Shown: in pieces, positions 1-21,352 of the stretch
Layout: each line of letters begins with the position of its first letter
Position numbering within the stretch: position 1 is the first letter of the stretch
IMG/VR virus record: IMGVR_UViG_2740892443_000002
Strand: one strand, 5' to 3'
From: a virus
Lineage: Duplodnaviria > Heunggongvirae > Uroviricota > Caudoviricetes
Length of the DNA stretch: 22,057 bases
Notes under the pieces: model-generated
What the model saw: the letters and a program-made list of their open reading frames with translations, nothing else
Told to the model about the DNA's origin: nothing
Databases searched by the model: none
Translations under genes and position numbers: made by a program

Positions 1-1032
1 TCAAAAACTTGCTATTGATGTTGGTAGTGTTGCCAGCGGATTAAACCGTAATGCAGTTTCTAGGTGATCCGGTGCTAGATGTGCGTAACGCATAGTCATT
101 TTTATGTCGTGATGTCCGAGGATTTTTTGCAAAGCAAGGATATTTCCACCCGACATCATAAAATGCGCCGCAAACGTATGGCGCAGAACGTGTGTCAGTT
201 GACCGCGAGGGAGCACGATAGACGTTTTTTCCATCACGGATAAAAATTGAAAATAGCAGTCTGTGAAGAAATTGAACCCATCGAGCGCCATGATCTCTTC
301 GTAAAGCTCTTTACTGATAGGGATGCTTCTGTTTTTCTTCCCCTTCGTTCTGACAAAGGTAATTCGGTATTTGGTCACCTGTGAGCGGGTAAGGTTTATT
401 GCTTCTCGCCAGCGTGCGCCTGTGCTTAAGCATATCTTGACTACCAGTGCCAGAATTGGGTCCTGACGTTTGCAATCATCCAGCAGTTCAACAATCTGCT
501 CATGGGTAAGCCATGCCATCTCTTTTTCTGCGATGGTGAATTTTCGCATGTTCTCCAGTGGGTTTGGATACGACCATTCGCCCAGGCGGGATAGTTCGCT
601 AAAAACACTACTTAGATAGCTTTGCTCCAGGTTAATGGTGACCGGGCTGGCCCCTTTCTTCCATTTCTCGCTGAAGTAGATCTCACCTGTCAGTCGTTTA
701 TCTCGATAATGGGCAAACATTTTAGATGTGAGATCGGTTGCAAGGGGATTGCCCAGAGCGTCAACCATCAGCAGCAATTTGTCATAGACATGCTGCCCAG
801 CAGTCAGAGATTTACCATGTAGTTTGAACCATAGCTCAACCACGTCTTTCAGGGTTCGACGATCTACTGATTCGCCCAGCCAGGGCTTTGCTTCGGTTTC
901 TTCCATCGTATGACGCTCAAAAGCCAGTGCTTCGCCTTTGGTGGCGAATTGTTTACGCACACGACGCCCACTACGTCCGGCGGGGTAACATTCGCAAAGC
1001 CATTTTCCTGTGGTGAGTTTTCGTACTGCCAT
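1..1032 (-). CDS. int: Tyrosine integrase, P2/186 type (343 aa from ATG at 1030-1032; stop at 1-3)
   Basis: ORF translation starting MAVRKLTTGKW... parallels remembered P2 Int N-terminus (MAIKKLDDGRYEVD...RKF..K.EA.AFE) and has the C-terminal catalytic region (LRHTFAAHF...MRYAHL) typical of tyrosine recombinases. The ORF-track start upstream is probably a non-ATG artefact. Confidence 0.9.
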   Translation of the reverse strand: MAVRKLTTGKWLCECYPAGRSGRRVRKQFATKGEALAFERHTMEETEAKPWLGESVDRRTLKDVVELWFKLHGKSLTAGQHVYDKLLLMVDALGNPLATDLTSKMFAHYRDKRLTGEIYFSEKWKKGASPVTINLEQSYLSSVFSELSRLGEWSYPNPLENMRKFTIAEKEMAWLTHEQIVELLDDCKRQDPILALVVKICLSTGARWREAINLTRSQVTKYRITFVRTKGKKNRSIPISKELYEEIMALDGFNFFTDCYFQFLSVMEKTSIVLPRGQLTHVLRHTFAAHFMMSGGNILALQKILGHHDIKMTMRYAHLAPDHLETALRFNPLATLPTSIASF

Positions 1033-1218
1033 AAAAAATGCCCTCCAATAGAGAGCATTTTTACTGTATGTATAACCAGTGTCAATGTATGAAATCTTGC
1101 GACCATACATCTCACTGAAGCCATAATGAAGTTGGCTATTTTTTGCTATGTGAGTATGTGACTTTTGCGGTTAGCCTGCGGCTCATTGTTATATTAGGCG
1201 CAGATATAAAAGCAAAAA

Positions 1219-1410
1219 TTATCGCGAGTTTTTAGTACAGATTTTTTTTGATTTACTAATAGTTCCATCATTGCAAACGAACTTTCCATCGGAGGTACAG
1301 TGAGAGACACCTCCCTTTTTTCCAGAACAAGGATAATTTTTAGCATAGGTAGTTAGTGGGTTTAATAACAAAGAGCATGATAAAACCACAAAAAATACCT
1401 TACCAAGCAT
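1219..1410 (-). CDS. Small secreted cysteine-rich protein (63 aa; signal peptide plus ~40 aa mature peptide with 4 Cys), probable moron
   Basis: ATG at 1408-1410 preceded on the minus strand by GGGAGGA Shine-Dalgarno (plus 1414-1420). N-terminus [23 protein letters not shown] looks like a signal peptide; mature part has C-x8-C-x7-C-x11-C. Lies between cI and int on the same strand. AT-rich. Confidence 0.55.
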
Positions 1411-1425
1411 AGTTTCCTCCCGGTA

Positions 1426-1995
1426 TTACCTAACGTACTTAATTGTTAAACTTATAATTTTTCCAATTATTTCAACATCTTCTATCTTGCACTCGAAGGA
1501 TCTGTTTCCACCTTCAACGAAGATTCTTCCACCGGGTAAACGAGTAATGTCGCGGATTGTTATTTCGCCATCAATACTTATTACCCATTTACCATCACGT
1601 ATATCATCAAATTCTTTATCACAAATAAATTCAGAATTGTTATCTGTGATGACAAAAGGTTTTTTAAACGTAGAGGGTAGAAATCCCTTATCAAAAATAT
1701 AAAAACCGTCTTCACGCAAGGCACCATCAGATAATACATATTTAGCAACTTCCATCGTATTTGTATTACCTGAAGTTTGCTTTGAACCATGTCCAGTTGT
1801 GAGCCAATTAAGCGAGGTGCCCGTTTCAAGGGCGCACTGGATTACCCATTCTGCTGGGAATGAGTCACGCATGTAGCGTGTAGCGAGTGTACTTTTAGAG
1901 ATTCCTAAATGATCGCACAACGCCTGTCGAGTTTTGAATCCATAAGCTTCTACCATGCGCTCTATAGCGCCTCGTCCGCCTTTCTCCAAATTCAT
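1426..1995 (-). CDS. cI: 186-type CI immunity repressor (189 aa from ATG at 1993-1995; a GTG two codons upstream is an alternative start)
   Basis: Translation (…ERMVEAYGFKTRQALCDHLGISKSTLATRYMRDSFPAEWVIQCALETGTSLNWLTTGHG…) closely parallels the remembered phage 186 CI sequence (…DRICEAYGFSQKIQLANHFDIASSSLSNRYTRGAISYDFAAHCALETGANLQWLLTGEG…) and is the same length class (~190 aa). GGAG precedes the ATG on the minus strand. Confidence 0.85.
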   Translation of the reverse strand: MNLEKGGRGAIERMVEAYGFKTRQALCDHLGISKSTLATRYMRDSFPAEWVIQCALETGTSLNWLTTGHGSKQTSGNTNTMEVAKYVLSDGALREDGFYIFDKGFLPSTFKKPFVITDNNSEFICDKEFDDIRDGKWVISIDGEITIRDITRLPGGRIFVEGGNRSFECKIEDVEIIGKIISLTIKYVR

Positions 1996-2019
1996 GGTCA
2001 CTCCAAGTGAACTTTTATC

Positions 2020-2048
2020 TTGACGATTTCATAGTGCGATCGTATGTT
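2020..2048 (+). promoter_or_regulatory. Candidate rightward lytic promoter (pR-like): -35 TTGACG (2020-2025), 17-bp spacer, -10 TATGTT (2043-2048)
   Basis: Read directly in the cI-apl intergenic region; spacing and hexamers fit sigma-70. Orientation toward apl/cII fits the 186 switch. No operator sites could be assigned. Confidence 0.4.
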
Positions 2049-2120
2049 TATGGTGTTCACAAAATACAAACGATCCGTATTCGTCCTGATTAATCATCAT
2101 TAAACGAGGAATGTTGCATC

Positions 2121-2342
2121 ATGAGACCTAACATTTCAATCACTCTTACCACGCCTCATGTGACTATTGAACGCTATAGCGAGCTGACAGGACTGTCCAT
2201 CGATACCATCAATGACATGTTGGCTGATGGACGCCTTATCCGTCACCGTTTGCGCAAAGATAAAAAACGCGAAAAAGTGATGATCAACATAGCAGCCATG
2301 ACCGTTGATGCGCTTTCAGAATGCAATCTAAACCTTAATTAG
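2121..2342 (+). CDS. apl: Apl/Cox-like small DNA-binding protein (excisionase and switch regulator), 73 aa
   Basis: First gene transcribed divergently from cI, immediately upstream of cII, as in phage 186; small basic protein with HTH-like segment ([21 protein letters not shown]). GAGGA precedes ATG at 2121. Assignment by position and size, not by remembered sequence. Confidence 0.65.
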
Positions 2343-2374
2343 TTCGATTCTGAAATACATCAGAGGCATTGACC

Positions 2375-2884
2375 ATGTTTGATTACCAAGTTTCCAAACA
2401 TCCACATTTTGATGAAGCCTGTCGTGCATTTGCACTGCGCCACAATCTGGTGCAACTGGCAGAACGTGCAGGCATGAATGTGCAGATTCTGCGGAACAAG
2501 CTGAACCCAGCTCAGCCTCATTTATTAACCGCACCAGAAATCTGGCTGCTTACCGATCTGACTGAAGATTCAACGCTGGTAGATGGTTTTCTGGCACAGA
2601 TTCACTGCCTGCCATGTGTACCGATTAATGAGGTTGCAAAAGAGAAACTGCCGCATTACGTCATGAGCGCAACTGCAGAGATCGGACGTGTTGCAGCAGG
2701 TGCGGTATCTGGTGATGTAAAAACTAGTGCCGGTCGTCGTGATGCTATCAGCAGCATTAACTCTGTAACACGACTGATGGCGCTGGCTGCTGTTTCATTG
2801 CAGGCCCGTTTACAGGCTAATCCTGCGATGGCGAGTGCAGTTGATACCGTGATTGGCCTCGGTGCTTCATTCGGTTTGCTGTGA
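2375..2884 (+). CDS. cII: 186-type CII lysogeny-establishment activator (169 aa from ATG at 2375)
   Basis: Translation [24 protein letters not shown]...[25 protein letters not shown]... is near-identical in pattern to remembered 186 CII ([24 protein letters not shown]...), same length (169 aa). Confidence 0.85.
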
Positions 2885-2891
2885 GGTGCTT

Positions 2892-3092
2892 ATGCTGACG
2901 AAAGAACCATCATTTGCATCGCTGCTGGTAAAACAAAGCCCGGCAATGCACTACGGTCACGGCTGGATCATGGGTGAGGATGGTAAACGCTGGCATCCGT
3001 GCCGTTCACAAGATGAATTGCTGGCAGAACTATCTACGAAAAAACGGGGGAACAAATGGCTATTGAAGGCGCTGCGGCGACTGTTCCATTAA
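2892..3092 (+). CDS. Hypothetical early protein (66 aa)
   Basis: ATG at 2892 preceded by GAGGTG; sits where 186 carries fil/dhr-type small early genes, but no sequence-level recognition. Confidence 0.4.
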   Translation: MLTKEPSFASLLVKQSPAMHYGHGWIMGEDGKRWHPCRSQDELLAELSTKKRGNKWLLKALRRLFH

Positions 3093-3397
3093 GCCCCGGT
3101 GAACGCCTGAATGGACTTAATCACATAGCGGAATTAAGGGCAAAAGTTTTTGGCCTGAATATTGAGTCAGAGCTTGAGCGGTTTATTAAAGATATGCGTG
3201 ATCCACGGGATATCAATAACGAACAAAATAAACGAGCACTGGCAGCCATATTCTTTATGGCAAAAATTCCGGCTGAACGTCATAGCATCAGCATCAATGA
3301 GCTGACCACTGACGAAAAGCGGGAGTTGATTAAAGCAATGAATCATTTTCGTGCAGTGGTGAGCTTATTTCCCAGACGGCTAACCATGCCGAATTAA
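3056..3397 (+). CDS. Hypothetical early protein (113 aa)
   Basis: ORF with upstream GGGG purine tract, overlaps the previous ORF by 37 nt in another frame; same strand as the early operon. Function unknown. Confidence 0.45.
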   Translation: MAIEGAAATVPLSPGERLNGLNHIAELRAKVFGLNIESELERFIKDMRDPRDINNEQNKRALAAIFFMAKIPAERHSISINELTTDEKRELIKAMNHFRAVVSLFPRRLTMPN

Positions 3398-3464
3398 CCA
3401 ACTAATGAAATTAATGGCGTAAACCCGCCGAGCATCCCTTTATCTAAATTCAGGAGAATTGATT

Positions 3465-3698
3465 ATGCGTAATATTGAGATCCTCACGACTAAAACCGGA
3501 TCGGATGATGCAGGGCTTAATATTTTACTGACAGTGGCTCGTCTGGAAGAACGCCGGGCAAGGGCTGAAGCAATGGCAGCTCGCCTTGATAGCCTGGCGT
3601 GTCATATCTCATCCCGTCAGCTAAACCACGTGGAAGCAGCAGAACTACTGCGTGTAACTGCTGAAGCAATCCAGAACGAAGCGCAGGAGATCCACTAA
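3465..3698 (+). CDS. Hypothetical early protein (77 aa from ATG at 3465)
   Basis: AGGAG at 3453-3457 with 7-nt spacing to ATG 3465; the ORF-track start at 3459 is a TTG. Stop overlaps the next gene start (TAATG). Confidence 0.5.
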   Translation: MRNIEILTTKTGSDDAGLNILLTVARLEERRARAEAMAARLDSLACHISSRQLNHVEAAELLRVTAEAIQNEAQEIH

Positions 3699-3925
3699 TG
3701 GCTGATGCAATGGATCTCGTACAGCAGCGCGTTGAAGAAGAACGCCAGCGCCATATTCGTGCTGCCCGTGCCAAAACACCGGGCGTGTCTCGCGTGCTTT
3801 GTATTGAATGTGAAGCGCCAATTCCGCCAGCACGACGCCGCGCCATTCCGGGAGTGCAGCTTTGCATTACCTGCCAGGAAATCGCAGAGCTGAAAGACAA
3901 ACATTACAACGGAGGTGCTGTATGA
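3698..3925 (+). CDS. TraR/DksA-family C4 zinc-finger protein (75 aa)
   Basis: C-x2-C-x17-C-x2-C (CIECEAPIPPARRRAIPGVQLCITC) in a ~75 aa protein is the TraR/DksA zinc-finger signature, common in P2-like early operons. Translationally coupled to neighbours. Confidence 0.7.
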   Translation: MADAMDLVQQRVEEERQRHIRAARAKTPGVSRVLCIECEAPIPPARRRAIPGVQLCITCQEIAELKDKHYNGGAV

Positions 3926-4779
3926 GCACCATCCTGAAATGGGCGGGAAATAAAACCGCCATTATGTCCGAACTGAAAAAACACCTTCCTGCTGGCCCGC
4001 GACTGGTTGAACCTTTCGCGGGTTCCTGTGCTGTGATGATGGAGACGGATTACCCCAGCTATCTGGTTGCGGATATTAATCCTGATTTAATCAACCTCTA
4101 TAAAAAGGTTGCCGCTGATTGTGAATCGTTTATATCTCGCGCCAGAGTTTTATTTGAGATCGCAAACAGGGAGGTGGCTTATTACAACATAAGGCAGGAG
4201 TTTAATTACTCCACTGAAATTACTGATTTCATGAAAGCGGTATATTTCCTGTATCTCAATCGTCACGGTTACCGTGGTTTATGTCGCTATAACAAGAGCG
4301 GGCATTTCAACATTCCCTACGGTAATTATAAAAATCCGTATTTCCCTGAAAAAGAAATTCGCGCATTTGCAGAAAAGGCCCAGCGAGCAACGTTTATCTG
4401 CGCCAGCTTTGATGAAACGCTGGCGATGTTGAAGGCGGGGGATGTGGTGTATTGCGATCCGCCGTATGACGGTACGTTTTCCGGCTATCACACTGACGGC
4501 TTCACTGAAGATGACCAGTATCACCTGGCATCTGTTCTTGAACATCGGTCATCAGAAGGACATCCGGTCATTGTTTCTAACAGTGACACATCCCTGATCC
4601 GTTCGCTGTATCGCAATTTTACTCACCACTACATCAAGGCAAAACGCAGCATCGGTGTGGCAGCTGGCGAGGGTAAATCAGCAACAGAAATCATTGCTGT
4701 TTCCGGGCCGCGCTGCTGGGTGGGATTTGATTATTCGCGTGGCGTGGATAGTTCTGCCGTGTACGGAGTACGTGCATGA
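3922..4779 (+). CDS. dam: DNA N6-adenine methyltransferase, Dam family (285 aa from ATG at 3922)
   Basis: N-terminal LKWAGNK and FAGSCAV (AdoMet-binding motif I region) and catalytic DPPY ([10 protein letters not shown]) motifs read in the translation. ATGA overlap with both upstream and downstream genes. Confidence 0.85.
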
Positions 4780-7190
4780 GTCATGCCGATATGAACAACT
4801 GCTGCGGCTTTAACGAGGCTGCCGCAGCATTCTCATGGAACAGCCCGAAAAAGGCCATTAACCCTTATCTGGACCCGGCGGAAGTTGCGCCGGTTTCTAC
4901 GCTTTCAAACCTGATCACTCTGTACGCTGCCGATAACGAGCAGGAACAGTTGCGCCGCGAGACACTGAGTGATCAGGTCTGGGAGCGTTATTTCTTTAAT
5001 GAATCACGTGATCCTGTCCAGCGCGAAATGGAGCAGGATAAGCTCATTAGCCGGGCAAAGCTGGCGCATGAGCAGCAGCGTTTTAATTCAGACATGGTCA
5101 TTCTGGCGGACGTCAACGCCAAGCCTTCCCATATCAGCAAGCCGCTGATGCAACGTATTGAATACTTCAGCAGCCTGGGCAGGCCAAAGGCTTATTCCCG
5201 CTATTTACGTGAGACGATTAAGCCATGTCTGGAACGACTGGAGCATGTACGCGACAGTCAGCTATCTGCATCTTTTCGCTTTATGGCAAGCCATGAAGGG
5301 CTGGACGGCCTGCTGATCCTGCCTGAAATGAGTCAGGATCAGGTGAAACGCCTGTCCACCCTGGTAGCTGCGCATATGAGTATGTGCCTTGATGCAGCTT
5401 GTGGTGATTTGTATGCCACCGATGACGTTAAGCCAGAAGAAATCCGCAAGACATGGGAAAAGGTGGCAGCGGAAACCCTGCGTCTGGATGTCATCCCACC
5501 TGCGTTTGAGCAACTCCGTCGGAAAAGAAACCGCCGTAAACCCGTGCCCTATGAACTCATTCCGGGTTCGCTGGCGCGTATGTTGTGCGCCGACTGGTGG
5601 TATCGGAAATTATGGAAGATGCGTTGCGAATGGCGGGAAGAGCAGTTGCGCGCTGTTTGCCTGGTCAGCAAAAAAGCATCTCCTTATGTCAGCTATGAAG
5701 CCGTGATGCATAAACGTGAGCAGCGCCGTAAGTCGCTGGAGTTTTTCCGTTCTCATGAACTGGTGAACGAAGACGGCGACACGCTGGACATGGAGGATGT
5801 GGTAAACGCCAGCAGCAGCAACCCTGCGCATCGCCGCAATGAGATGATGGCCTGTGTTAAAGGTCTGGAGCTTATCGCGGAAATGCGCGGTGACTGCGCC
5901 GTTTTCTACACTATCACCTGTCCGTCGCGTTTCCATTCCACGCTAAATAACGGCAGACCAAACCCGACCTGGACAAACGCGACGGTAAGACAAAGCAGCG
6001 ATTATCTGGTCGGCATGTTTGCTGCATTTCGTAAGGCGATGCACAAAGCCGGGTTGCGCTGGTATGGCGTGCGGGTGGCTGAGCCGCATCATGATGGCAC
6101 AGTTCACTGGCACCTGTTGTGTTTCATGCGCAAAAAAGACCGCCGTGCCATCACTGCATTACTGCGTAAGTTTGCCATCCGTGAAGACCGCGAGGAGCTG
6201 GGCAATAACACTGGGCCGCGCTTTAAGTCTGAGTTGATTAACCCGCGCAAAGGAACGCCGACAAGCTACATCGCGAAATATATCAGTAAGAACATTGACG
6301 GTCGTGGTCTGGCTGGCGAGATCAGCAAGGAAACGGGTAAATCTCTGCGTGATAACGCTGAATACGTGAATGCCTGGGCGTCTCTGCATCGTGTTCAGCA
6401 ATTCCGCTTCTTTGGTATTCCGGGGCGTCAGGCTTACCGTGAACTTCGCTTGCTGGCTGGTCAGGCGGCAAGGCAACAGGGTGACAAAAAAGCAGGTGCG
6501 CCGGTACTGGATAACCCGCGTCTTGATGCCATTCTGGCTGCTGCTGATGCTGGTTGTTTTGCCACCTACATCATGAAGCAGGGCGGCGTACTGGTTCCCC
6601 GTAAATATCACCTCATCAGAACCGCTTATGAAATCAACGAAGAGCCGACCGCCTATGGCGATCACGGCATTCGTATTTATGGCATCTGGTCACCCATTGC
6701 AGAGGGCAAGATCTGCACTCATGCAGTGAAGTGGAAAATGGTTCGTAAAGCCGTTGACGTTCAGGAGGCGGCAGCCGACCAGGGCGCTTGCGCCCCTTGG
6801 ACTCGTGGCAATAACTGTCCCCTTGCTGAAAATTTGAACCAACAGGAGAAAGATAAATCAGCAGATGGGGATACCAGAACTGATATTACCTGCATGGATG
6901 ACAAGGAATTGCACGATTACCTGCACAATATGAGCAAAAAAGAGCGCCGGGAACTGGCAGCAAGATTACGCCTGGTTAAACCGAAACGGCGTAAAGACTA
7001 CAAACAGCGAATTACAGAGCATCAGCGTCAGCAGCTCGTCTATGAACTGAAGTCCAGAGGATTTGATGGCAGCGAGAAAGAGGTCGATTTGCTCCTTCGC
7101 GGTGGCAGTATTCCGTCAGGAGCAGGCCTGCGTATCTTCTATCGGAACCAGCGTTTGCAGGAAGATGATAAGTGGCGGAACCTGTATTAA
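4776..7190 (+). CDS. A: Rolling-circle replication initiator, P2 gpA family (804 aa)
   Basis: Large protein at the position of P2/186 gene A, with a paired-tyrosine motif YIAKYISK (nt 6265-6288; Y-x3-Y) as in P2 gpA / phiX174 gpA-type nicking endonucleases. Confidence 0.85.
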
Positions 7191-7282
7191 TTACGCGGGT
7201 TAACAATTCGTGCTCTTAATAATACCAGGCATATCAGGCTGATGAACGTAAAAAAACGTTTTACATCAGTAAGATTATTATA

Positions 7283-7302
7283 TACTGTAAATATAAACAG
7301 TG
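7283..7302. promoter_or_regulatory. LexA (SOS) box: TACTGTAAATATAAACAGTG (CTGT-N8-ACAG)
   Basis: Exact CTGT-N8-ACAG with AT-rich spacer, read at 7285-7300; overlaps a possible promoter (-35 TTTACA 7260-7265, 17-bp spacer, -10 TACTGT 7283-7288) about 45 bp upstream of the ORF at 7344. Confidence 0.6.
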
Positions 7303-7343
7303 TTTGTGCATACAGTATTGCTTGTGGTGTCATAGGAGGAAAG

Positions 7344-7532
7344 ATGCAGGACTATTTTTTGGAGTCTTTGAAGCTCCAGCGCATTGATTTTTTTCTTAAG
7401 CTTGTAGCGGCTAGTGAGTGTAGTGATGAAGAGAAGGGGCTGGCTCTGCAGTGGGTTTCTGAATTGACTGATGAACTCATGGCAAAAATCAGAAGCCACG
7501 AATACAACCGCTCAATGGATGTCATCAGCTGA
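7344..7532 (+). CDS. Small protein (62 aa) downstream of the LexA box; possibly the 5' part of a split tum-like antirepressor gene
   Basis: ATG at 7344 preceded by AGGAGG. The longer ORF-track start at 7242 would run through the LexA box and is rejected. Relationship to 186 tum is inferred from position and from the adjacent DinI-like gene. Confidence 0.5.
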   Translation: MQDYFLESLKLQRIDFFLKLVAASECSDEEKGLALQWVSELTDELMAKIRSHEYNRSMDVIS

Positions 7533-7542
7533 GGTGACTTTT

Positions 7543-7776
7543 ATGCGCATTGAAATAATGATCGATAAAGAGCAGAAGATTAGCCAGTCTACCCTGGACG
7601 CTCTGGAGTCCGAGCTTTACCGCAACCTGCAACCCATCTATCCCAAGACAGCTATCCGCATCCGTAAAGGGTCGGCAAACGGCGTTGAGCTGAGTGGCTT
7701 AAAGCTTGATGAAGACAAAACGCGGGTGATGGAAATTATGCAGCAGGTTTGGGAAGACGACAGCTGGCTGCACTAA
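7543..7776 (+). CDS. DinI-family protein (77 aa from ATG at 7543)
   Basis: Translation MRIEIMIDKEQKISQSTLDALESELYRNLQPIYPK...DEDKTRVMEIMQQVWEDDSWL aligns along its length with remembered E. coli DinI (MRIEVTIAK...AIDALAGELSRRIQYAFPD...KEDKQRISEILQETWESADDWF). GAGGTG at 7531-7536 precedes the ATG. Confidence 0.85.
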   Translation: MRIEIMIDKEQKISQSTLDALESELYRNLQPIYPKTAIRIRKGSANGVELSGLKLDEDKTRVMEIMQQVWEDDSWLH

Positions 7777-7849
7777 GGAACGTTCCTGATGTAAGAACTT
7801 GATTCTGACGTCAGCAAGGTTGAACAACGAGAGTAGCGAGGCGTTAGCC

Positions 7850-8110
7850 ATGGGTAAAAAAGACAGTAATCACCAGATTATTTATCGGGGCCAGGTGCTG
7901 GAACGGTTTACCCCTGGCGGCTGGGTCTTCTTTCAACGCCCAAAGGAGTGTGGCGGAGGTTTTTGGTTGGGCCGCACCTATGAAGACTGCTTCTGGCTTG
8001 AGCTGGAATTCCCCGTTTCGCTATATGACGGCCTGGAGTTTTTGATGGAAGTCACCAGGGTAGAGCAGAGAAGTGATGAGGTTGACGCGAATTATTCCCT
8101 GTTTGATTAA
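7850..8110 (+). CDS. Hypothetical protein (86 aa from ATG at 7850)
   Basis: GAGG at 7838-7841 about 8 nt before ATG 7850; ORF-track start at 7799 is TTG. No recognisable family. Confidence 0.45.
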   Translation: MGKKDSNHQIIYRGQVLERFTPGGWVFFQRPKECGGGFWLGRTYEDCFWLELEFPVSLYDGLEFLMEVTRVEQRSDEVDANYSLFD

Positions 8111-8158
8111 AAATGTATTAGCTTATAATGGAATACTATTTTTGCAGGTGGGGGCGCA

Positions 8159-8770
8159 ATGGATTTAGTCTTTAAAATTCTGGCTTCGTTGGGTGGGGTG
8201 TCTTTTGTTGCATCTGGCATATTTGTTTGGATCGGGAAAGTTTATTTAGAAAGATATAAGTCGCGGCTAAACAAAGATATTGCTGAATTTCAATCACAAC
8301 TGAGTGCAACTAATGAAAGAATAAAGGCTAAGTTAGACAATTCTGTTTATGTAACGAAAGCGTATTTTGATAAGGAGTTATCAGCATATAGTCTCATTTG
8401 GAATTCGATGTTTGAAACCAGAGAAAGCGTGCTTAAGCTGAGGCCTGCGCTGGATCATTTTGACCCCAACGAACCATTTGAAGAGAGAAAATTTAGAAGG
8501 TTGAAAGTTTTTTTCGATGCATTTAATACTTTTGTTACAAGTGTTGAGTCTAACAAACCGTTCATCTCACCAGAGGTTTATATAATCTTGGACCGTTTCC
8601 GGAAGGAATGCTTTTCAGAGTCAATATCGTTTCAGCATGGCGATCCAGAATTTGACTGGCAAAATTATTGGAAAGAGGCAGAGTTGAATCGTACAACCAT
8701 CATCAAGCTTTTTGATGAGACGTGTGATGCAATTCGAGACAGGATGCACACATTAACTGTGGTTACGTAG
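8159..8770 (+). CDS. Membrane-anchored protein (203 aa): one N-terminal transmembrane helix, coiled-coil-like segment, C-terminal domain of unknown function; cargo gene, candidate defence function
   Basis: Hydrophobic stretch ILASLGGVSFVASGIFVWIG near the N-terminus; AT-rich codon usage unlike the flanking prophage genes; own -10 TATAAT at 8124-8129 and a downstream hairpin terminator at 8862-8889. Confidence 0.7.
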   Translation: MDLVFKILASLGGVSFVASGIFVWIGKVYLERYKSRLNKDIAEFQSQLSATNERIKAKLDNSVYVTKAYFDKELSAYSLIWNSMFETRESVLKLRPALDHFDPNEPFEERKFRRLKVFFDAFNTFVTSVESNKPFISPEVYIILDRFRKECFSESISFQHGDPEFDWQNYWKEAELNRTTIIKLFDETCDAIRDRMHTLTVVT

Positions 8771-8861
8771 TTTTCCAAAAAGTCTCGATGCCCGCTTTGG
8801 CGATTGTGCATGTCTATGCCGCATGAATCCGCATGATCGTTTGAGGATCGTTTTAGCTGAG

Positions 8862-8889
8862 GCCCGCTAGGAATGGCGGGCTTTTGCTT
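8862..8889 (+). terminator. Intrinsic terminator candidate: GCCCGC-TAGGAATG-GCGGGC followed by TTTTGCTT
   Basis: 6-bp GC stem (8862-8867 / 8876-8881), 8-nt loop, T-rich tail 8882-8889; lies about 90 nt downstream of the 8159-8770 gene. Confidence 0.45.
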
Positions 8890-8930
8890 ATGTCATGCAG
8901 ACGCATGAAAACCACTACATAAAGCGGGCA

Positions 8931-8949
8931 GGCGTGGCGGGGATACGAG
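8931..8949 (+). other. cos-like site: GGCGTGGCGGGGATACGAG, resembling the 19-nt cohesive end of P2/186
   Basis: First 13 nt match the remembered 186 cos end GGCGTGGCGGGGA(AAGCAT), and the following GCGCGCT also parallels the remembered P2 left end. Orientation points toward Q as in P2. Remembered sequences are unverified. Confidence 0.45.
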
Positions 8950-9059
8950 CGCGCGCTCATGGTTGAATTAATGAAATTATGGTGTTAAATAGGCTAGCTT
9001 TTTAAGTCGTGAATATTCAATTTTTCAACTCATTTTTTTCATAGGGAGGAGTAATTGAC

Positions 9060-9758
9060 ATGGTTATGTTAGTGGATGACTGTCCACGATGTGGATCACA
9101 AAAAATAGCGTTTGATGTTAATGGGCTGAATTGCACTAGGGTTTACAATGCATTGGGCGGGGGTAAAACATACGAGTACGAGGTCTATTGTGTTTGCCGA
9201 GAGTGTCATAAAACGACAATGTTTCTTTGCAGACCTTTAACGAAAAATAAAACTTTAGATGGCTATAATTGGGAAAGTGGAATATTCGGCTTAAAGGAAG
9301 TTGCAGAGGTTGTTAGGCCTATATCACCGGCAGACTTAGCAGTAGAGGAGCCACCAGAGTTCTTACCTGAGCATATCAATAGTGCATATGAGGAAGGGGC
9401 GAAATGTTTGGCTATAGGTTGTTATAATGCAGCAGCAACCATGTTTAGGCTTTGCCTTGATTATGCCACAAAAGGACTTCTTCCTGATGGGGAGCAAGGG
9501 CCTGCGCAAAAAATAAGGAGAAGCCTAGGGTTAAGAATGGAGTGGTTATTTGATAATCATCTACTGCCTGAAGCTTTAAGGGAACTAGCTGAATGCGTTA
9601 AAGATGACGGAAATGATGGAGCGCATGAAGGTATTTTGGATAAAGCTGCTGCTGAGGATCTTGAAGATTTTACCTATCTTTTTTTAGAACGGCTTTACAC
9701 TGAACCTCAACGCCTTATCGAAGCCAAGACAAGGCGTGAACAAAGAAGAAACAAATAA
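9060..9758 (+). CDS. Zinc-ribbon protein with DUF4145/HEPN-like C-terminal domain (232 aa); cargo gene between cos and portal, candidate defence/abortive-infection effector
   Basis: N-terminal CPRCG...CVCRECH (C4 ribbon); C-terminal helical region ending ...LRELAECVKDDGNDGAHEG... resembles the GN-x-AH core that I recall for DUF4145. GGGAGGAG precedes the ATG; candidate promoter -35 TTGAAT 8963-8968 with TG-extended -10 TAAATA 8986-8991. AT-rich. Stop is 8 bp from the convergent Q stop. Confidence 0.7.
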   Translation: MVMLVDDCPRCGSQKIAFDVNGLNCTRVYNALGGGKTYEYEVYCVCRECHKTTMFLCRPLTKNKTLDGYNWESGIFGLKEVAEVVRPISPADLAVEEPPEFLPEHINSAYEEGAKCLAIGCYNAAATMFRLCLDYATKGLLPDGEQGPAQKIRRSLGLRMEWLFDNHLLPEALRELAECVKDDGNDGAHEGILDKAAAEDLEDFTYLFLERLYTEPQRLIEAKTRREQRRNK

Positions 9759-9766
9759 GTTCGGAA

Positions 9767-10801
9767 TTATTCTTCTGAAAGAATATAGGGCGTAAATTTA
9801 ATCACTTCTTCGCCCAGCCAGTCGTTCAGCTCTTGTAGCCTTTTTTGCAAGGGCGTTAATTCATTACGTACAAATACGCGACTGGCCTTCTCCACATCCC
9901 CAAACCCCCCGACATTATTAGGCATTATCCCCATCATTTGTGGCGGCACACGATGCGCCGCCATCATGTCGTCCCGGCTCACGTTCTTGATATTCAGGAA
10001 CTCATCCTTCGCCGCCACTTCTGACAACGGGATAATCTGAAGCCCGTCCTTTTTACCGTTAGGCGAGTACATAAACAGGTTACGGAAGTTACCAGGACCT
10101 TTGGCGCTTTTCATCGCATTGCGGAGGTTGTTCACATCTTCCTGGTTCTGCGCTGCATCGGTCATGTACATGATGAAGCCTGCATGACTGCCGTTAATGT
10201 AATACTTGCGGCGGAACAGCGTGGCGGACTCGTTGAGCAGAGCTGACGGAATGGCAGAAAGATAACCAGGCAGGCCGTAGATCTCCTGGTTGATGTCCGG
10301 TTCCATCAGATGAAAAATGTTGCATTTCGTGAACTGATACGGCTGCGTAGTCATGCCGTATTGCACAAACCAGTAGGTATCAAGGTCTAACCCGCGTCGG
10401 GTGTATTTTGCCAGTGCAGGCTCAAGGGCGATAACTTCACCGAAGCGGTTCGTGCGTTTCTCCAGGTAGGCGTTACCAAAAACCAGATAGTCCTGTACAA
10501 AACGCGAAAAAGCCTGCTGGCTGAGCAGCGGGTGAGGGATGTAGGTGCTGGTCAGAATGTTGCACTTCACTGCAATCGGTGAGCTGTGATGCACGGCGGC
10601 GCGGAAGGTTCGCGCCAGTCCGTCGAAACTCACAGGCGGCTCGTACCAACGATCCATCTGTACGCATTCCACATAGTCCAGCAGTTCGCGGCGGTCCAGA
10701 ACAGGAACGGGATCACCGAAGCTGAATGCTTCGGCTGAAGTCTGGCTTTTATGCTGGATCTGTTTCGTCGACGCAGCGCGGTTCTTCTTACTCTTTCCCA
10801 T
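9767..10801 (-). CDS. Q: Portal protein, P2 gpQ family (344 aa from ATG at 10799-10801)
   Basis: Size identical to P2 Q (344 aa), position and orientation next to cos and the large terminase gene as in P2; start overlaps the P stop (TGATG). Confidence 0.85.
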   Translation of the reverse strand: MGKSKKNRAASTKQIQHKSQTSAEAFSFGDPVPVLDRRELLDYVECVQMDRWYEPPVSFDGLARTFRAAVHHSSPIAVKCNILTSTYIPHPLLSQQAFSRFVQDYLVFGNAYLEKRTNRFGEVIALEPALAKYTRRGLDLDTYWFVQYGMTTQPYQFTKCNIFHLMEPDINQEIYGLPGYLSAIPSALLNESATLFRRKYYINGSHAGFIMYMTDAAQNQEDVNNLRNAMKSAKGPGNFRNLFMYSPNGKKDGLQIIPLSEVAAKDEFLNIKNVSRDDMMAAHRVPPQMMGIMPNNVGGFGDVEKASRVFVRNELTPLQKRLQELNDWLGEEVIKFTPYILSEE

Positions 10802-12567
10802 CAAAAAATCTCCACAATATTGCTGGTATTGGCGGACTCGCCCTGCAGCGGTTCGTTAAACAGTGCGTGCATTGTTGCCCAGGCCAGATCGGCATGGCTG
10901 GCTTCTTCGCTGCGGCTGGCTTCATAGGTCGGGCGGTTGCCACTGGCAGTGGTAGCGCGACGGATTGCCATAAATGACTGCGCAATGTCGGTGTGCCCGG
11001 CGTCAAACTCCAGACGGCGGTGGCTGATAATGTCGTAGGCCTTGAGTACCAGGGCGTTTTTAACGTTGGGGTTATAGACAAACTCCCTGACGGCAGGAAA
11101 AAACGCTTTCACGTTCTCGTAAACCCCGTGACCGACGCCGGTCGAGTCGATACCGATATAGGTCACGTTATACTGTTCGGTCAGTTTTTTGATGGCGTCA
11201 GCCTGGGCGCGGAAGTCCATCCCGCGCCACTGGTGACGCTCAAGAATGCGGAACTTACCACCCGGCACGGCTGGCGGAGCCACCACCACGCATCCGGCAC
11301 TGTCGCCGTTCTGCGTACCTTTTGCCGGGTCATAACCGATCCACACTTCGCGCCAGCCAAACGGGCGCAGGGCCAGTGCATGAAAGTCGGTCCAGACTTC
11401 CCAGCTGTCCACCATGCACGCCTGCAGTTCGCTGAGCGGGAACACGGACGCGAGATCGTCCACGAACTCGCACATCAGCAGGTTCTGGTATTCGTCCGGG
11501 CTGTACTCCATGCGCAGCTGGTCGAGGTCGAACAGGTTACAGCCGCCGCGCACCGCATCTTCCACGGTGACTATCTGGCGGTATTGCCCGTCTGCGCACA
11601 GTAGGCCGGGGGCCAGATTGCTGTGGGACAGGTCGATGTCCACCTTGTCAGCTTTGTTGCGTCCACGGTTGAACAGCGCACCGGACCAGAACGGATAAGC
11701 ACTGTGGGTCAGGCTGGATGGCGTGGAAAAATAGGTTTGTCGCCATTTCTTGTGAATAGCCATACCGGAAGCCACTTTGCGCAACTCCTGGAATTTCGGT
11801 ATCCAGAAATATTCATCCAGATACAGGTTGCCGTGGTAACTCTGCGCCGTGCGGGCATTGGTGCCGAGGAAGTAAAGCGTGGCCCCGTTAGGAAGCACCA
11901 TCGGATCGCCTTTCAGCTCCACCTCGACTTCTTTGGCGAAGTCGATGATGTACTGCTTAAAGACGTGAGCCTGTGCCTTACTGGCAGAAAGGAAAATCTG
12001 GTTACGTCCGGTAAGCAGGGCGTCAATCAGGGCTTCACGGGCAAAGTAAAAGGTCGCGCCGATCTGGCGTGACTTCAGCAGGTTGCGGATGCGGTTGGTT
12101 TTTCCGGCTTCCCACCAGTGGCGCTGGTAGTTGAACATGGAGGAATGGAAGATTTCTTCCAGTTTCTCTATCTGTTCATCGGTGAAAACATTCTTTTCCG
12201 GCTGACGGCGCGGGCCTTTGTTGCGGTTGGCGACGTTAGGGTTTAAGTCGGCTTCGTTACCGCCATTGTTAAACTTGCCGATCCGCGCGTGGCGCTCCGA
12301 CTGGCGCGCCAGCAGGTCAATTTCTTTGAAATCTTTCCCTTCTTTGTGCTCCTTCATAATGAGCTGGCAGTAACGTGCGGCGGTGGTGAGCTGCATCTGA
12401 TCCAGCGGCCCATAGTCACCCCACTTGTCGCGTTTCTTCCAGCTGTGAACGGTTGCAACTTTCTCGCCCAGCATTTCAGCAATGCGGGCTACGCGGTATC
12501 CCTGAAAGTACAGCAGCATGGCCTGCCGACGGGGATCGAGATCTGCGGGTGTCAGTGTGGTGTTCAT
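10801..12567 (-). CDS. P: Terminase large (ATPase) subunit, P2 gpP family (588 aa)
   Basis: Size (P2 P is ~590 aa) and position, co-oriented with Q and divergent from O, as in the P2 packaging module. Confidence 0.85.
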   Translation of the reverse strand: MNTTLTPADLDPRRQAMLLYFQGYRVARIAEMLGEKVATVHSWKKRDKWGDYGPLDQMQLTTAARYCQLIMKEHKEGKDFKEIDLLARQSERHARIGKFNNGGNEADLNPNVANRNKGPRRQPEKNVFTDEQIEKLEEIFHSSMFNYQRHWWEAGKTNRIRNLLKSRQIGATFYFAREALIDALLTGRNQIFLSASKAQAHVFKQYIIDFAKEVEVELKGDPMVLPNGATLYFLGTNARTAQSYHGNLYLDEYFWIPKFQELRKVASGMAIHKKWRQTYFSTPSSLTHSAYPFWSGALFNRGRNKADKVDIDLSHSNLAPGLLCADGQYRQIVTVEDAVRGGCNLFDLDQLRMEYSPDEYQNLLMCEFVDDLASVFPLSELQACMVDSWEVWTDFHALALRPFGWREVWIGYDPAKGTQNGDSAGCVVVAPPAVPGGKFRILERHQWRGMDFRAQADAIKKLTEQYNVTYIGIDSTGVGHGVYENVKAFFPAVREFVYNPNVKNALVLKAYDIISHRRLEFDAGHTDIAQSFMAIRRATTASGNRPTYEASRSEEASHADLAWATMHALFNEPLQGESANTSNIVEIF

Positions 12568-12613
12568 GGCACAAACCTACAGCCTTGAATGAAGGCTTTC
12601 CCCGCCTGCGGTT

Positions 12614-12631
12614 TGTGTGGTTGTCGGTACA
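12614..12631 (+). promoter_or_regulatory. TGT-N12-ACA dyad in the P-O divergent intergenic region; candidate Ogr/B-dependent late-promoter activator site
   Basis: TGTGTGGTTGTCGGTACA read at 12614-12631; P2-family late promoters carry a TGT-N12-ACA element about 55 bp upstream of the start site, which here would place a rightward start roughly 30 nt before the O ATG. Confidence 0.4.
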
Positions 12632-12709
12632 AATACCGCGCATTGTTTCACTGCCCCCATCACCGCAACCATAAGGCTCCAGTAAGTTATTTCTAACGGA
12701 GCACGGCTC

Positions 12710-13543
12710 ATGACAGTGAAAGCAAAGCGTTTTCGCATCGGGGTGGAAGGTGCCACCACCGACGGACGCGAAATCCAGCGTGAATGGCTGGAACAGATGG
12801 CAGCCAGCTACAACCCGGCGGTGTATACCGCGCTGATTAACCTTGAGCACATCAAGTCTTATCTCCCGGACAGCACCTTTAACCGTTACGGCAAGGTGAC
12901 GGCGCTGTTTGCTGAAGAAATCACGGAAGGCCCGCTGGCAGGCAAGATGGCGCTGTATGCCGGCGTTGAGCCAACGGAGTCCCTGGTGGAATTGGTGAAA
13001 AAAGGCCAGAAATTATTCACCTCTATGGAAGTCAGCCCGAAGTTTGCTGATACGGGCAAAGCCTACCTGGTCGGCCTGGCTGCCACTGATGACCCTGCCA
13101 GTCTGGGCACTGAAATGCTGACATTCAGCGCCAGTGCAGCCCATAACCCGCTGGCAAACCGCAAGCAGAATCCTGCCAATCTCTTTACCGCTGCAGAGGA
13201 AACGGTGATCGAACTGGAAGAAATCCAGGACGACAAACCGTCCCTGTTTGCCCGCGTCACGGCGCTGTTTACCAAAAAAGAGCAGTCCGATGACGCCCGG
13301 TTCTCTGATGTGCATAAGGCCGTGGAGCTGGTCGCCACTGAGCAGCAGAACCTGAGCGCACGCACCGAAAAATCCCTGTCTGAGCAGGAAGAACGCCTGT
13401 CTGAGCTGGAGACTGCCTTGCAGGCACAGCAAACCGCCTTTAACGAACTGGTGGACAAGCTGAGTCATGAAGACAGCCGCCAGGACTACCGCCAGCGTGC
13501 AACAGGCGGTAACGCCCCCGCTGACACTCTGACCAATTGCTGA
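12710..13543 (+). CDS. O: Capsid scaffolding protein, P2 gpO family (277 aa)
   Basis: Position and size (P2 O ~284 aa) immediately before the major capsid gene; acidic, alanine-rich, coiled-coil-like C-terminal half typical of scaffold proteins. Confidence 0.8.
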   Translation: MTVKAKRFRIGVEGATTDGREIQREWLEQMAASYNPAVYTALINLEHIKSYLPDSTFNRYGKVTALFAEEITEGPLAGKMALYAGVEPTESLVELVKKGQKLFTSMEVSPKFADTGKAYLVGLAATDDPASLGTEMLTFSASAAHNPLANRKQNPANLFTAAEETVIELEEIQDDKPSLFARVTALFTKKEQSDDARFSDVHKAVELVATEQQNLSARTEKSLSEQEERLSELETALQAQQTAFNELVDKLSHEDSRQDYRQRATGGNAPADTLTNC

Positions 13544-13559
13544 TGGAGCACAAAACCCG

Positions 13560-14618
13560 ATGAAGAAGAATACCCGCTTTGCTTTTAACGCTTACCTGCA
13601 GCAGCTGGCGCGTCTGAACGGTGTGGCAGTTGAAGAACTGTCCAGCAAGTTCACCGTGGAGCCGTCTGTACAGCAGACGCTGGAAGACCAGATCCAGCAG
13701 TCCGCCGCTTTCCTGACGCTGATTAACGTCACGCCAGTGACTGAGCAGTCTGGGCAGTTGCTGGGGCTGGGGGTTGGCAGCACCATTGCCGGAACCACTG
13801 ATACCACCGCAAAAGAGCGTGAGCCTGTCGATCCGACGCTGATGGTCGATGTGGAATACAAATGCGAACAGACCAACTTTGACACGGTGCTGACCTACGC
13901 GAAGCTGGACCTGTGGGCGAAGTTTCAGGATTTCCAGGTGCGTATCCGTAACGCCATCGTGAAACGTCAGGCACTGGACCGCATCATGATCGGCTTTAAC
14001 GGCGTGAAGCGTGCGAAAACCTCCAACCGTAGCGAAAACCCGCTGCTGCAGGATGTGAACAAAGGCTGGCTGCAGAAAATCCGTGAGGATGCACCGGATC
14101 ACGTCATGGGCAGCACCACCACGGGCGGTGAAACCACACCGGGCGCGGTGAAAGTCGGGAAAGGTGGCGAATATGCCAACCTGGACGCCGTAGTGATGGA
14201 TGCCGTCAATGAGCTTATCGATGTGGTCTACCAGGACGATGACGATCTGGTGGTGATTTGCGGTCGTGAACTGCTGTCTGACAAGTATTTCCCGCTGGTC
14301 AACAAAGAGCAGGAAAACAGTGAAAAACTGGCTGCCGATATGATCATCAGTCAGAAACGCATGGGTGGCCTGCAGGCGGTGCGTGCGCCGTTCTTCCCGC
14401 CGAATGCGCTGCTGATCACCCGTCTGGATAACCTGTCCATCTACTGGCAGGAAGATACCCGCCGCCGTTCAGTTATCGACAACCCGAAACGTGACCGGAT
14501 TGAAAATTTTGAATCCGTTAACGAAGCCTATGTGGTTGAGGACTATCGCTGCGCTGCACTGGTGGAAAACATCCAGATTGGTGACTTCAGCGCCGCCGCA
14601 GCAGAAACCGGAGCGTAA
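13560..14618 (+). CDS. N: Major capsid protein, P2 gpN family (352 aa)
   Basis: Translation MKKNTRFAFNAYLQQLARLNGVAVEELSSKFTVEPSVQQTLEDQIQQSAAFLTLINVTPV... matches the pattern of remembered P2 gpN (M..ETRFKFNAYLSRVAELNGIDAGDVSKKFTVEPSVTQTL...); size fits. Confidence 0.9.
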   Translation: MKKNTRFAFNAYLQQLARLNGVAVEELSSKFTVEPSVQQTLEDQIQQSAAFLTLINVTPVTEQSGQLLGLGVGSTIAGTTDTTAKEREPVDPTLMVDVEYKCEQTNFDTVLTYAKLDLWAKFQDFQVRIRNAIVKRQALDRIMIGFNGVKRAKTSNRSENPLLQDVNKGWLQKIREDAPDHVMGSTTTGGETTPGAVKVGKGGEYANLDAVVMDAVNELIDVVYQDDDDLVVICGRELLSDKYFPLVNKEQENSEKLAADMIISQKRMGGLQAVRAPFFPPNALLITRLDNLSIYWQEDTRRRSVIDNPKRDRIENFESVNEAYVVEDYRCAALVENIQIGDFSAAAAETGA

Positions 14619-14621
14619 TTC

Positions 14622-15272
14622 ATGAGCCTGAGTCCCGCACGGCAGCATCGCCTGCGCGTTCAGGCTGAACAGGCCGCTCGCGAGGGTGGCAGTGTTCGCC
14701 ACGCGTCGGGCTATGACCTGATGCTGCTGCAACTGGCGGAAGACCGTCGCCGTCTCAAGGGCGTTCAGTCCACGGTAAAAAAAGCGGAAATCAAGGTGGA
14801 GCTGCTGCCGAAATATGCTGCCTGGGCGGAGGGCGTTCTGGCTGCCGGAGGCGCTCAACAGGATGACGTGCTGATGTACGTGATGCTGTGGCGCATTGAT
14901 GCCGGAGATTATGCCGGGGCGCTGGAGATCGGGCGTCATGCCCTGCGTCATGGCTGGGTGATGCCGCTGGGTAACCGCAACGTGCAGACCGTGCTGGCAG
15001 AGGAAATGGCAGACGCGGCGCAGAGCGCAATGCTTGCCGCCACCGGCTTTGATGCCGATCTGTTGCTGCAGACGCTGGAGCTGACAGACGGTCTGGATAT
15101 GCCGGACCAGTCACGGGCGCGTCTGCATAAAGCGATTGGCGCTGTCCTGTGTGAAAGCAACCCGGCTTCCGCCCTTAATCATCTCAACCATGCGTTACAG
15201 CTCGATCCCCGCTGTGGCGTGAAAAAAGACAAACAGCAGCTGGAGCGCAGACTGCGCAATGACAGCCGCTGA
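14622..15272 (+). CDS. M: Terminase small/endonuclease subunit, P2 gpM family (216 aa)
   Basis: Position directly after N and size class fit P2 gene M; start 3 nt after the N stop. Confidence 0.75.
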   Translation: MSLSPARQHRLRVQAEQAAREGGSVRHASGYDLMLLQLAEDRRRLKGVQSTVKKAEIKVELLPKYAAWAEGVLAAGGAQQDDVLMYVMLWRIDAGDYAGALEIGRHALRHGWVMPLGNRNVQTVLAEEMADAAQSAMLAATGFDADLLLQTLELTDGLDMPDQSRARLHKAIGAVLCESNPASALNHLNHALQLDPRCGVKKDKQQLERRLRNDSR

Positions 15273-18755: not shown

Positions 18756-18835
18756 CGCTGCCGCCATTTTGTCGCCATCGTTAAAGAATAGTGCTTCTAA
18801 CATCATGATTTTAAACAGCTTAAATTTCAGACAAC

Positions 18836-18877
18836 AAAAAACCCATCAACCTTGAACCGAAATGGCGGGGTTGATGG
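18836..18877 (-). terminator. Intrinsic terminator for ybjL (minus strand): 10-bp stem CCCATCAACC/GGTTGATGGG followed by a U-run
   Basis: Stem arms at 18841-18850 and 18868-18877; on the minus strand the hairpin is followed by TTTTT (plus 18836-18840 AAAAA). Lies ~115 nt downstream of the ybjL stop. Confidence 0.6.
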
Positions 18878-21343: not shown

Positions 21344-21352
21344 GTCAGACGA

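Follow-up and report, generated by a model that had tools for sequence, protein, structure and literature searches.

A defective 186/P2-like prophage of Escherichia coli and its probable decay within a single clone

The closest described systems to the element reported here are intact 186/P2-like prophages of Escherichia coli, namely those of strains 17MR471 (locus L002; NZ_CP051158.1) and H1 (L029; NZ_CP010160.1), both located at the rcdA-ybjL site, and that of strain C2 (L007; NZ_CP010117.1), which is integrated at another att site and carries a different int and cI. The region from A to Q of P2-like phages, adjacent to cos, is a documented defence hotspot (PMC9122126; PMC9519451), and there are reports of defective P2-like prophages with conserved defence genes (bioRxiv 10.64898/2026.02.27.708500). 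The stretch of DNA analysed here, termed the window at its full length of 22,057 nucleotides (IMG/VR record IMGVR_UViG_2740892443_000002), contains most of a defective 186/P2-like prophage that spans 19,308 bp from attL to attR between rcdA and ybjL of E. coli. The att core, gene order and proteins are those of the intact relatives, and the cos, ori and ogr sites of the latter match the window, but the window lacks 11.5-13.9 kb, extending from codon 51 of the head-completion gene L to approximately codon 576 of the tape measure gene T. The window DNA is that of assembly GCA_000804325.1, contig JUJY01000017.1 (labelled L013 among the loci of the clone described below), which is 100% identical to the window and is the sole public contig with the exact A protein. 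Genes were called from a listing of open reading frames (ORFs) together with Pfam and PHROG scans. The locus is very probably a grounded and decaying 186/P2-like prophage that has undergone one recent deletion and is still eroding. A single illegitimate recombination event at the hexamer GCGCTG deleted the lysis genes and most of the tail genes, and was followed by vertical inheritance in one clone, with further microhomology-associated deletions in the remaining phage genes.

The late region, in which the deletion lies, encodes the following features (lengths of proteins in amino acids, aa):

9767..10801, minus strand: portal gene Q, 344 aa (Pfam Phage_portal; 99.7% identity to the intact C2 prophage, L007)
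10801..12567, minus strand: terminase ATPase subunit gene P, 588 aa, with a breakpoint hotspot, CGGAAGCC, at 11766-11773 (Pfam Terminase_5/6N/6C; 100% aa identity to relatives)
12710..13543, plus strand: capsid scaffold gene O, 277 aa, with the derived change D85G (Pfam Phage_GPO)
13560..14618, plus strand: major capsid protein gene N, 352 aa (Pfam Phage_cap_P2)
14622..15272, plus strand: terminase endonuclease subunit gene M, 216 aa, with a breakpoint hotspot, GGCTTCCG, at 15164-15171 (Pfam Phage_term_smal)
15368..15517, plus strand: L', the first 50 codons of the head-completion gene L (alignment to the L genes of L002 and L029; partial match to Pfam Phage_GPL)
15512..15517, no strand assigned: deletion junction, a 6-bp perfect microhomology, GCGCTG, common to L and T (three-way alignment that included the window and each side of the intact 17MR471 prophage)
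15518..16867, plus strand: 'T, the last ~450 codons (3' 1,350 nt) of the 1,025-aa tape measure gene, in frame with L' (tblastn identity of 98.7% to T of L002 and L007; PHROG tape-measure matches)
16864..17349, plus strand: tail protein gene U, 161 aa (Pfam Phage_P2_GpU)
17346..18446, plus strand: tail/late-control protein gene D, 366 aa (Pfam Phage_GPD)
18537..18755, plus strand: Ogr/Delta late-gene activator gene ogr, 72 aa (Pfam Ogr_Delta)
18833..18846, plus strand: attR core, AACAAAAAACCCAT, a direct repeat of the attL core

Alignment of the window to the intact 17MR471 and H1 prophages resolves a single internal deletion. Homology to the intact prophages continues up to window position 15517 (nucleotide 150 of L) and is regained in T at approximately nucleotides 1716-1730, with imperfect homology flanking the GCGCTG repeat. 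Codon 50 of L is fused in frame to approximately codon 576 of T, giving rise to a 499-aa chimeric ORF (15368-16867). The segment lost amounts to 11.46 kb relative to 17MR471 and 13.9 kb relative to H1, in which the tail-fibre region is longer. Nineteen complete genes lay within it, along with all of L beyond codon 50 and the 5' 56% of T, the removed genes comprising X, those for the holin (Y) and endolysin (K), lysA/B/C, R, S, V, W, J, I, H, G, FI, FII and E/E'. Neither a complete lysis cassette nor a complete contractile-tail set is therefore present when compared with L002 and L029, which marks the element as a defective member of its family. The L'::'T chimera is found in NCBI as a "head completion/stabilization protein" (e.g. 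MCL7076972.1), a label that is an annotation artefact of the deletion junction.

Aside from the deletion, the head cluster (Q and P in one orientation, O, N, M and L in the other) has the canonical P2-family order and orientation, as judged from the Pfam matches. None of the genes int, cI, cox, cII, dam, A, Q, P, O, N or M is shortened, and all are collinear with their counterparts in the intact relatives. In gap-free alignments at equal length, the products of the ten genes other than cox show 93-100% aa identity to those of the relatives. Start and stop codons overlap at traR/dam, dam/A, P/Q, T/U and U/D. A first-pass annotation of the sequence had described a tail-less element at positions 1-15272, in which the lysis and tail genes are gone and L is lost, whereas the ORFs of int, cI, cII, dam, A, Q, P, O, N and M have their full length, plausible starts and coupling. 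The description of the genes stands, their ORFs being uninterrupted and of the same lengths as in the intact relatives, and neither frameshifts nor premature stops were found in the head genes when these were aligned with those relatives. The lysis cassette and most of the tail genes are indeed absent, but the term tail-less does not fit an element that retains 'T, U and D, together with ogr, to the right of M. Nor is L wholly lost, as 50 codons of the truncated gene persist in an in-frame fusion with 'T, and the element extends past both ends of the interval 1-15272, with attR at 18833-18846 and the attL core, AACAAAAAACCCAT, 462 bp to the left of window position 1 on JUJY01000017.1.

The clone that carries the junction was found by exact-protein look-up of L'::'T. 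At least 24 contigs, which come from NCBI draft genomes, from Logan SRA assemblies and from one ENA metagenome, encode the exact 499-aa fusion protein, and 17 named contigs that encode it all carry the label E. coli. A 301-bp junction probe gave a junction-spanning match in none of 5,426 complete E. coli genomes, and the junction 40-mer is absent from the GTDB species representatives. The ten junction loci shown (L008-L017) are 99.9-100% identical to the window, including the flank from ybjL to potG, while the nearest complete genomes show 99.8% identity in the chromosomal flank. The junction arose once, in the ancestor of a single E. coli clone, and the identity of the chromosomal flanks shows that it has since been passed on vertically.

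Intact relatives are common, and the prophage in which the deletion occurred is a mosaic of three blocks, each 99.4-100% identical to the matching prophage type. Taken by thirds, the element shows 99.6-100% identity to blocks of intact prophages elsewhere. Block 1-6500 shares 99.4-100% identity with 17MR471 and GF31, with the products of int through dam showing 100% aa identity to those of 17MR471. The block from 6500 to 12700, together with the cargo genes, is 99.4-100% identical to the intact C2 prophage (99-100% from A to M), and for the block that begins with 'T and ends at attR the identity to the intact prophage of H1 is 99.8-100%. From 'T through ybjC the nucleotide identity to L019 and L029, where the full tail module is present, is 99.86%. 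The exact D protein of the window was found in 593 index blocks, and in each of the ten places shown it lies at the ybjL site beside a tail module that is complete.

Within the clone, at least seven different secondary deletions have struck P, O-N-M, Q, cos or the replication module. The following intervals, in window coordinates and without strand, are missing from individual loci:

8764-10466: missing from L008 and L016 (cos, the DUF4145 gene and the 3' part of Q)
11977-15165: also missing from L008 and L016 (the 5' part of P, O, N and most of M)
2940-11764: missing from L009
2444-11768: missing from L010
5195-15166: missing from L011
11406-12257: missing from L012 (an 852-bp in-frame deletion of the ATPase domain of P only)
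12716-15150: missing from L014 (O, N and most of M)
7008-10356: missing from L017

Only the source locus L013 and L015 match the window among the ten loci, and an IS5-family insertion sequence (IS) element (locus positions 1583-2563) takes the place of int through cII in L008. When the loci shown are combined with the "similar places" that were listed but not shown, Q-P-O-N-M is whole in only four of 19 places, with at least one head or packaging gene lost in the remaining 15. The junctions of the secondary deletions have 1-7 nt of microhomology, in addition to one imperfect 19-mer.

The nfsA gene, just to the right of the window (~16674-17396 in locus coordinates), has been inactivated in four separate ways in the clone. 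These are an E28* nonsense mutation in L008, a 1-bp deletion at nucleotide 44 in L009-L012, a 7-bp deletion at nucleotides 403-409 in L013 (the source) and L017, and an IS30 insertion at nucleotide 675 in L014 and L015. The R27C substitution is present in all of the nfsA-inactivated loci, and wild-type nfsA occurs only in the metagenome contig L016. Selection by nitrofurans would fit this parallel inactivation of a nitroreductase gene. Each nfsA subclade holds several prophage deletion states and the secondary deletions are, therefore, recent and independent.

Seven point differences have arisen since the deletion, as polarised with seven to eight outgroup prophages. Six of these single nucleotide polymorphisms (SNPs) are nonsynonymous (int A78T, cII T160I, A Q116K, O Q23K, O D85G and U E104G) and one is synonymous (M R216R), with the window allele carrying three of the derived nonsynonymous changes (cII T160I, A Q116K and O D85G). 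The ratio of nonsynonymous to synonymous substitution rates (dN/dS) of the same genes against diverged relatives is 0.004-0.1, a value which reflects the history of the genes in functional phages and not their evolution since the deletion. By our own binomial estimate, the probability of six or more nonsynonymous changes among seven is ~3e-5 if the historical constraint still held and ~0.44 if the changes were neutral. The remaining genes thus appear to be intact because the deletion is recent and not because they are maintained. Members of the clone have gone on to lose P, O-N-M, Q, cos, the cargo of the hotspot or the entire replication module, and base changes in the prophage build up as though free of constraint.

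At least nine other independent deletion alleles occur at the same att site in complete genomes, namely in strains FDN-11, GF31, cM2a, NCTC9041, LH10-b-1, CFSAN061772, NCTC_13148, H6 and 22F46. The left ends of these deletions fall in the P/O intergenic region or in O, M, L, Y or K. As these ends cut O, M and the P/O region, the head genes are not specially spared in this prophage family. Insertion sequences are likewise observed in same-site relatives, with ISApl1 located between int and cI in 17MR471 (L002 3839-4813) and IS1 in the portal gene of NCTC_13148 (L032 10241-10938).

Several points weigh against decay as the reading of this locus. All 24 ORFs of the window are uninterrupted, and purifying selection alone would give the same picture. 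The loci are shown with only 10 kb of flank, such that deletions to the left of window position ~5,400 are invisible in some of them, while the retention of 'T-U-D-ogr in all loci reflects ascertainment via the L'::'T protein. The secondary deletion events were counted informally from the loci, and the SNP sample, which agrees in direction with the deletions, is small (n=7) and drawn from a mixture of genes. The genealogy of the clone is, furthermore, not a clean tree, as shown by a four-gamete conflict. Positions 5121 (A Q116K) and 12963 (O D85G) occur in all four allele combinations across L012-L015, and although an identical IS30 insertion in nfsA is common to L014 and L015, these two loci carry different alleles at both SNPs. 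Such a conflict is indicative of intraclonal recombination or gene conversion, or else of recurrent mutation. L016 also has six clustered synonymous differences in ybjL and ybjM (window-equivalent 19168-21098), while the prophage beside the cluster has the same two secondary deletions as L008; the cluster looks like a chromosomal recombination tract abutting the prophage.

Some breakpoints recur exactly. At a site in P, L009 and L010 both resume at ...CCGGAA/GCCAC (11769-11770; two alleles), and at a site in M, L008/L016, L011 and L014 resume at ...GGCTT/CCGCCC (15167-15168; three alleles in three nfsA subclades). The left end of the M-to-D deletion in the unrelated strain cM2a falls at the same M-site dinucleotide. 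The only two copies of CGGAAGCC in the window, at 11766-11773 (plus strand) and 15164-15171 (minus strand), are the P and M breakpoints, and the crossover lies on the central AA/TT of this sequence at both sites (loci L004, L008-L011, L014 and L016). A third site, at nucleotide 2159 of T (window-equivalent 15946/15947, ...CTGTTA/GGTGCTCTG), is the right breakpoint of three independent deletions, namely those of NCTC9041 (L005 17691) and NCTC_13148 (L032 15840) and the second deletion of H6 (L033 16940-16951), in strain backgrounds that are 1-2% apart. Neither CGGAAGCC nor any other motif common to the P and M sites was found at the T site. The fixed end is the right, terminus-proximal one in eight of the nine events while the other end varies, with the direction of replication inferred from a gene order as in K-12 and a positive GC skew. 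It is conceivable, if somewhat doubtful, that the erosion is non-random, with a sequence-specific nick or replication pause being followed by fork collapse or template switching and by microhomology joining. Such a process, if true, would drive the directional decay of prophages, and exact recurrent breakpoints would be relevant to research on illegitimate recombination if upheld in a large survey.

A number of candidate causes of these breakpoints were considered and set aside. Nicking by the A protein (HUH) finds no counterpart, the ori homolog inside A (6791-6818; 23/28 identical to the annotated nick region of the P2 ori) being unlike the hotspot sequences. The cos-like site (8931-8949) is dissimilar, which speaks against terminase, and the att core bears no resemblance to them. 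Chi and RecBCD were discounted since GCTGGTGG occurs on neither strand of the prophage. This canonical Chi sequence is absent from both strands of window positions 1-18846, and its sole copy in the window lies in ybjL (20001, minus strand). Local hairpins are limited to weak inverted repeats of 8-9 nt, and IS-mediated adjacent deletion was rejected as an IS is found at none of the junctions. CRISPR self-targeting was set aside because the P-site deletions leave AAG and its neighbouring sequence in place and would not, therefore, represent escape. Gyrase cleavage is unsupported, in that the published motif is too degenerate to be judged by eye and the quinolone "^GNNC" preference has no obvious fit.

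The early region, the A-to-Q region and the chromosomal flank comprise the following features:

1..1032, minus strand: tyrosine integrase gene int, 343 aa (Pfam Int_N and Phage_integrase; 100% aa identity to int of 17MR471)
1219..1410, minus strand: small ORF of the YdcA family, 63 aa (phrog_6000; equal length in relatives)
1426..1995, minus strand: 186-type CI repressor gene, 189 aa (Pfam Phage_CI_repr and Phage_CI_C; 100% identity to L002 and L003)
2121..2342, plus strand: Cox/Apl-like excisionase-repressor gene, 73 aa (phrog_575)
2375..2884, plus strand: CII gene, 169 aa, with the derived change T160I (Pfam Phage_CP76)
2892..3925, plus strand: fil, DUF5347, DUF2732 and traR/dksA-like early genes (Pfam)
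3922..4779, plus strand: Dam-type adenine methylase gene, 285 aa (Pfam MethyltransfD12)
4776..7190, plus strand: replication endonuclease gene A, 804 aa, with the derived change Q116K (Pfam Phage_GPA, E=9.5e-128)
7344..8770, plus strand: orf62, a DinI-like gene, orf86 and orf203, which form the left portion of the variable hotspot between A and Q (Pfam DinI; PHROGs; variable among relatives)
8931..8949, plus strand: cos-like 19-mer, GGCGTGGCGGGGATACGAG (read from the sequence; 14/19 identical to P2 cosR)
9060..9758, plus strand: DUF4145 protein gene, 232 aa, cargo between cos and Q (Pfam DUF4145, E=4.5e-7)
18991..22057, no single strand: chromosomal flank outside the element, with ybjL (minus), ybjM, grxA (minus), ybjC and the first 17 nt of nfsA (Pfam; annotation of homologous loci)

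Window position 1 corresponds to the stop codon of int, and on the source contig a small ORF and attL lie to the left of the window start, attL at a distance of 462 bp. The nfsA gene starts at window position 22041 and no tRNA gene is present in the window. The gene order is canonical for 186/P2-like phages (Peduoviridae), and the integrase, the 186-type CI/Cox(Apl)/CII switch and the Ogr/Delta activator are all present (Pfam, phrog_575). The window allele probably still confers CI immunity against homo-immune phages. On derepression, the gene and site content suggests that excision (int, cox and both att cores) and replication (A and the ori homolog) would be possible, and that the P/Q unit and the fused O-N-M-L'T-U-D unit could be transcribed under Ogr. 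Lacking lysis, head completion and tails, the element is predicted to yield no stable, releasable and infective particles. Rescue by a helper would be only trivial, as for any defective prophage, since a helper that provides L, lysis and tails provides everything else too.

The DinI-like gene of the A-to-Q region (7543-7776; 77 aa) is located directly downstream of A, and its product shows 83-99% aa identity among relatives. In phage 186, Tum is an SOS-linked antirepressor, and by analogy the DinI-like gene may code for a Tum-like antirepressor of this kind. The DUF4145 protein shows a strong match to phrog_1305 and a weak match to the PADLOC model PD-T7-4 (E=1.2e-6, 26 bits, model positions 39-165 of 211). 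Twenty-five complete E. coli genomes carry this cargo at 98-99.9% identity, for the most part in prophages integrated elsewhere, and in the window the gene is intact and 99.6% identical to the copies in intact prophages.

While cos, Q, P, O, N, M, int, cox, A/ori and ogr are all intact in the window allele, and tail piracy is known in E. coli from those phage-inducible chromosomal islands that form capsids (cf-PICIs), it is highly improbable that the element is a selectively retained satellite of this sort, which would form its own P2-type heads and borrow tails and lysis. The L gene, required for head stability and tail joining, has been cut to 50 codons, whereas cf-PICIs have their own adaptor/connector genes, and the tail fragments 'T, U and D, which would be useless to such a satellite, are still present. 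The loss of head or packaging genes from 15 of the 19 places, the 6:1 excess of nonsynonymous SNPs, two of them in O, and the restriction of the junction to one chromosomal background all argue against selective retention, as do the independent same-site deletions that cut M or O or remove O-N-M. Given what is known of P2/P4 packaging, 19.3 kb would moreover fill only ~60% of a P2-type head. The first-pass annotation had posed a recent deletion and a retained, helper-dependent, capsid-forming element as alternatives, the latter to be recognised by a deletion architecture conserved across strains with head genes under purifying selection. The architecture is instead unstable even within the clone, and the head-gene losses, the SNP ratio and the destruction of L speak against retention. 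The recent deletion is upheld by a single microhomology event, by near-identical intact blocks elsewhere and by a junction restricted to one near-clonal lineage; the restriction to one strain with intact relatives elsewhere, which had been named as evidence against a retained element, was observed in the form of one clone.

A domesticated remnant, kept for CI immunity and for the cos-proximal defence cargo (DUF4145 and orf203) and purged by selection of its lethal genes for lysis and tails, would agree with the hotspot character of the A-to-Q region (PMC9122126; PMC9519451), with the defective P2-like prophages in which defence genes are conserved (bioRxiv 10.64898/2026.02.27.708500) and with the near-identity of the intact DUF4145 gene to the copies in intact prophages. 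The block from endolysin to tail fibre has also been removed in all ten independent same-site deletion alleles, although this common loss is confounded, the loci having been ranked by coverage of a query without that block. Domestication is nonetheless unlikely. The DUF4145 cargo has been deleted in six of the ten loci (L008, L009, L010, L011, L016 and L017), an IS has replaced cI through cII in L008, and the PD-T7-4 match (E=1.2e-6) is weak. A refinement of the decay reading, in which the secondary deletions are positively selected since a replicating, cos-cutting but non-lysing prophage is harmful, is unlikely too. All seven secondary deletion alleles touch the packaging block from cos to M, one of them by the 852-bp in-frame loss of only the P ATPase domain, and the DinI-like gene beside A hints at SOS-linked induction as with 186 Tum. 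The packaging block, however, accounts for over half of the ~10 kb that can be seen on the left side of the probe gene, such that by a rough estimate the pattern has an appreciable probability by chance and the enrichment was judged not significant. The inducibility of the prophage is unsupported, and window-like alleles persist in at least three nfsA subclades. The grounded prophage that still decays after one recent deletion accounts for the locus better than these alternatives.

As a decaying prophage, the window resembles the defective P2-like prophages with hotspot defence genes already described (bioRxiv 10.64898/2026.02.27.708500) and cryptic prophages in general, in being a non-mobile remnant that has lost mobility and structural genes and whose hotspot cargo is nearly identical to that of intact elements. 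It differs from these in that the window allele is a very early one, with one deletion and no pseudogenes, while the clone documents the next steps, including the loss of the cargo. The clone provides a natural time series, in which one fixed lysis/tail deletion was followed by at least seven further deletions within ~1e-4 substitutions per site, and thus a direct and datable view of the speed and order in which a grounded prophage erodes. The satellite P4 shares the P2-type cos logic, and transfer of the window element would similarly need a P2-like helper. P4, however, has no capsid genes and relies on the dedicated piracy genes sid, psu, delta and alpha, whereas the window has capsid genes, and no sid, psu, delta or alpha-primase families were detected in its Pfam or PHROG scans. 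The cf-PICIs are, on paper, also chromosomal elements with capsid and packaging genes but without a functional tail. They are distinguished by an HK97-type packaging operon, their own adaptor/connector genes, regulation of the PICI type, an architecture that is small and conserved, and a spread over different species. The window instead combines a P2-type module with a destroyed L, tail debris and an unstable architecture found in one clone; Pfam scans revealed none of the PICI-type alpA or pri-rep-type domains, the early region being of the 186-type cI/cox/cII/A kind. A self-sufficient capsid set, an HK97-type operon and a conserved, horizontally spread architecture are thus all lacking in the window. 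The element is a new allele of a well-known kind, an ordinary defective P2-like prophage, and classing it as such avoids the naming of deletion debris as a new class of satellite.

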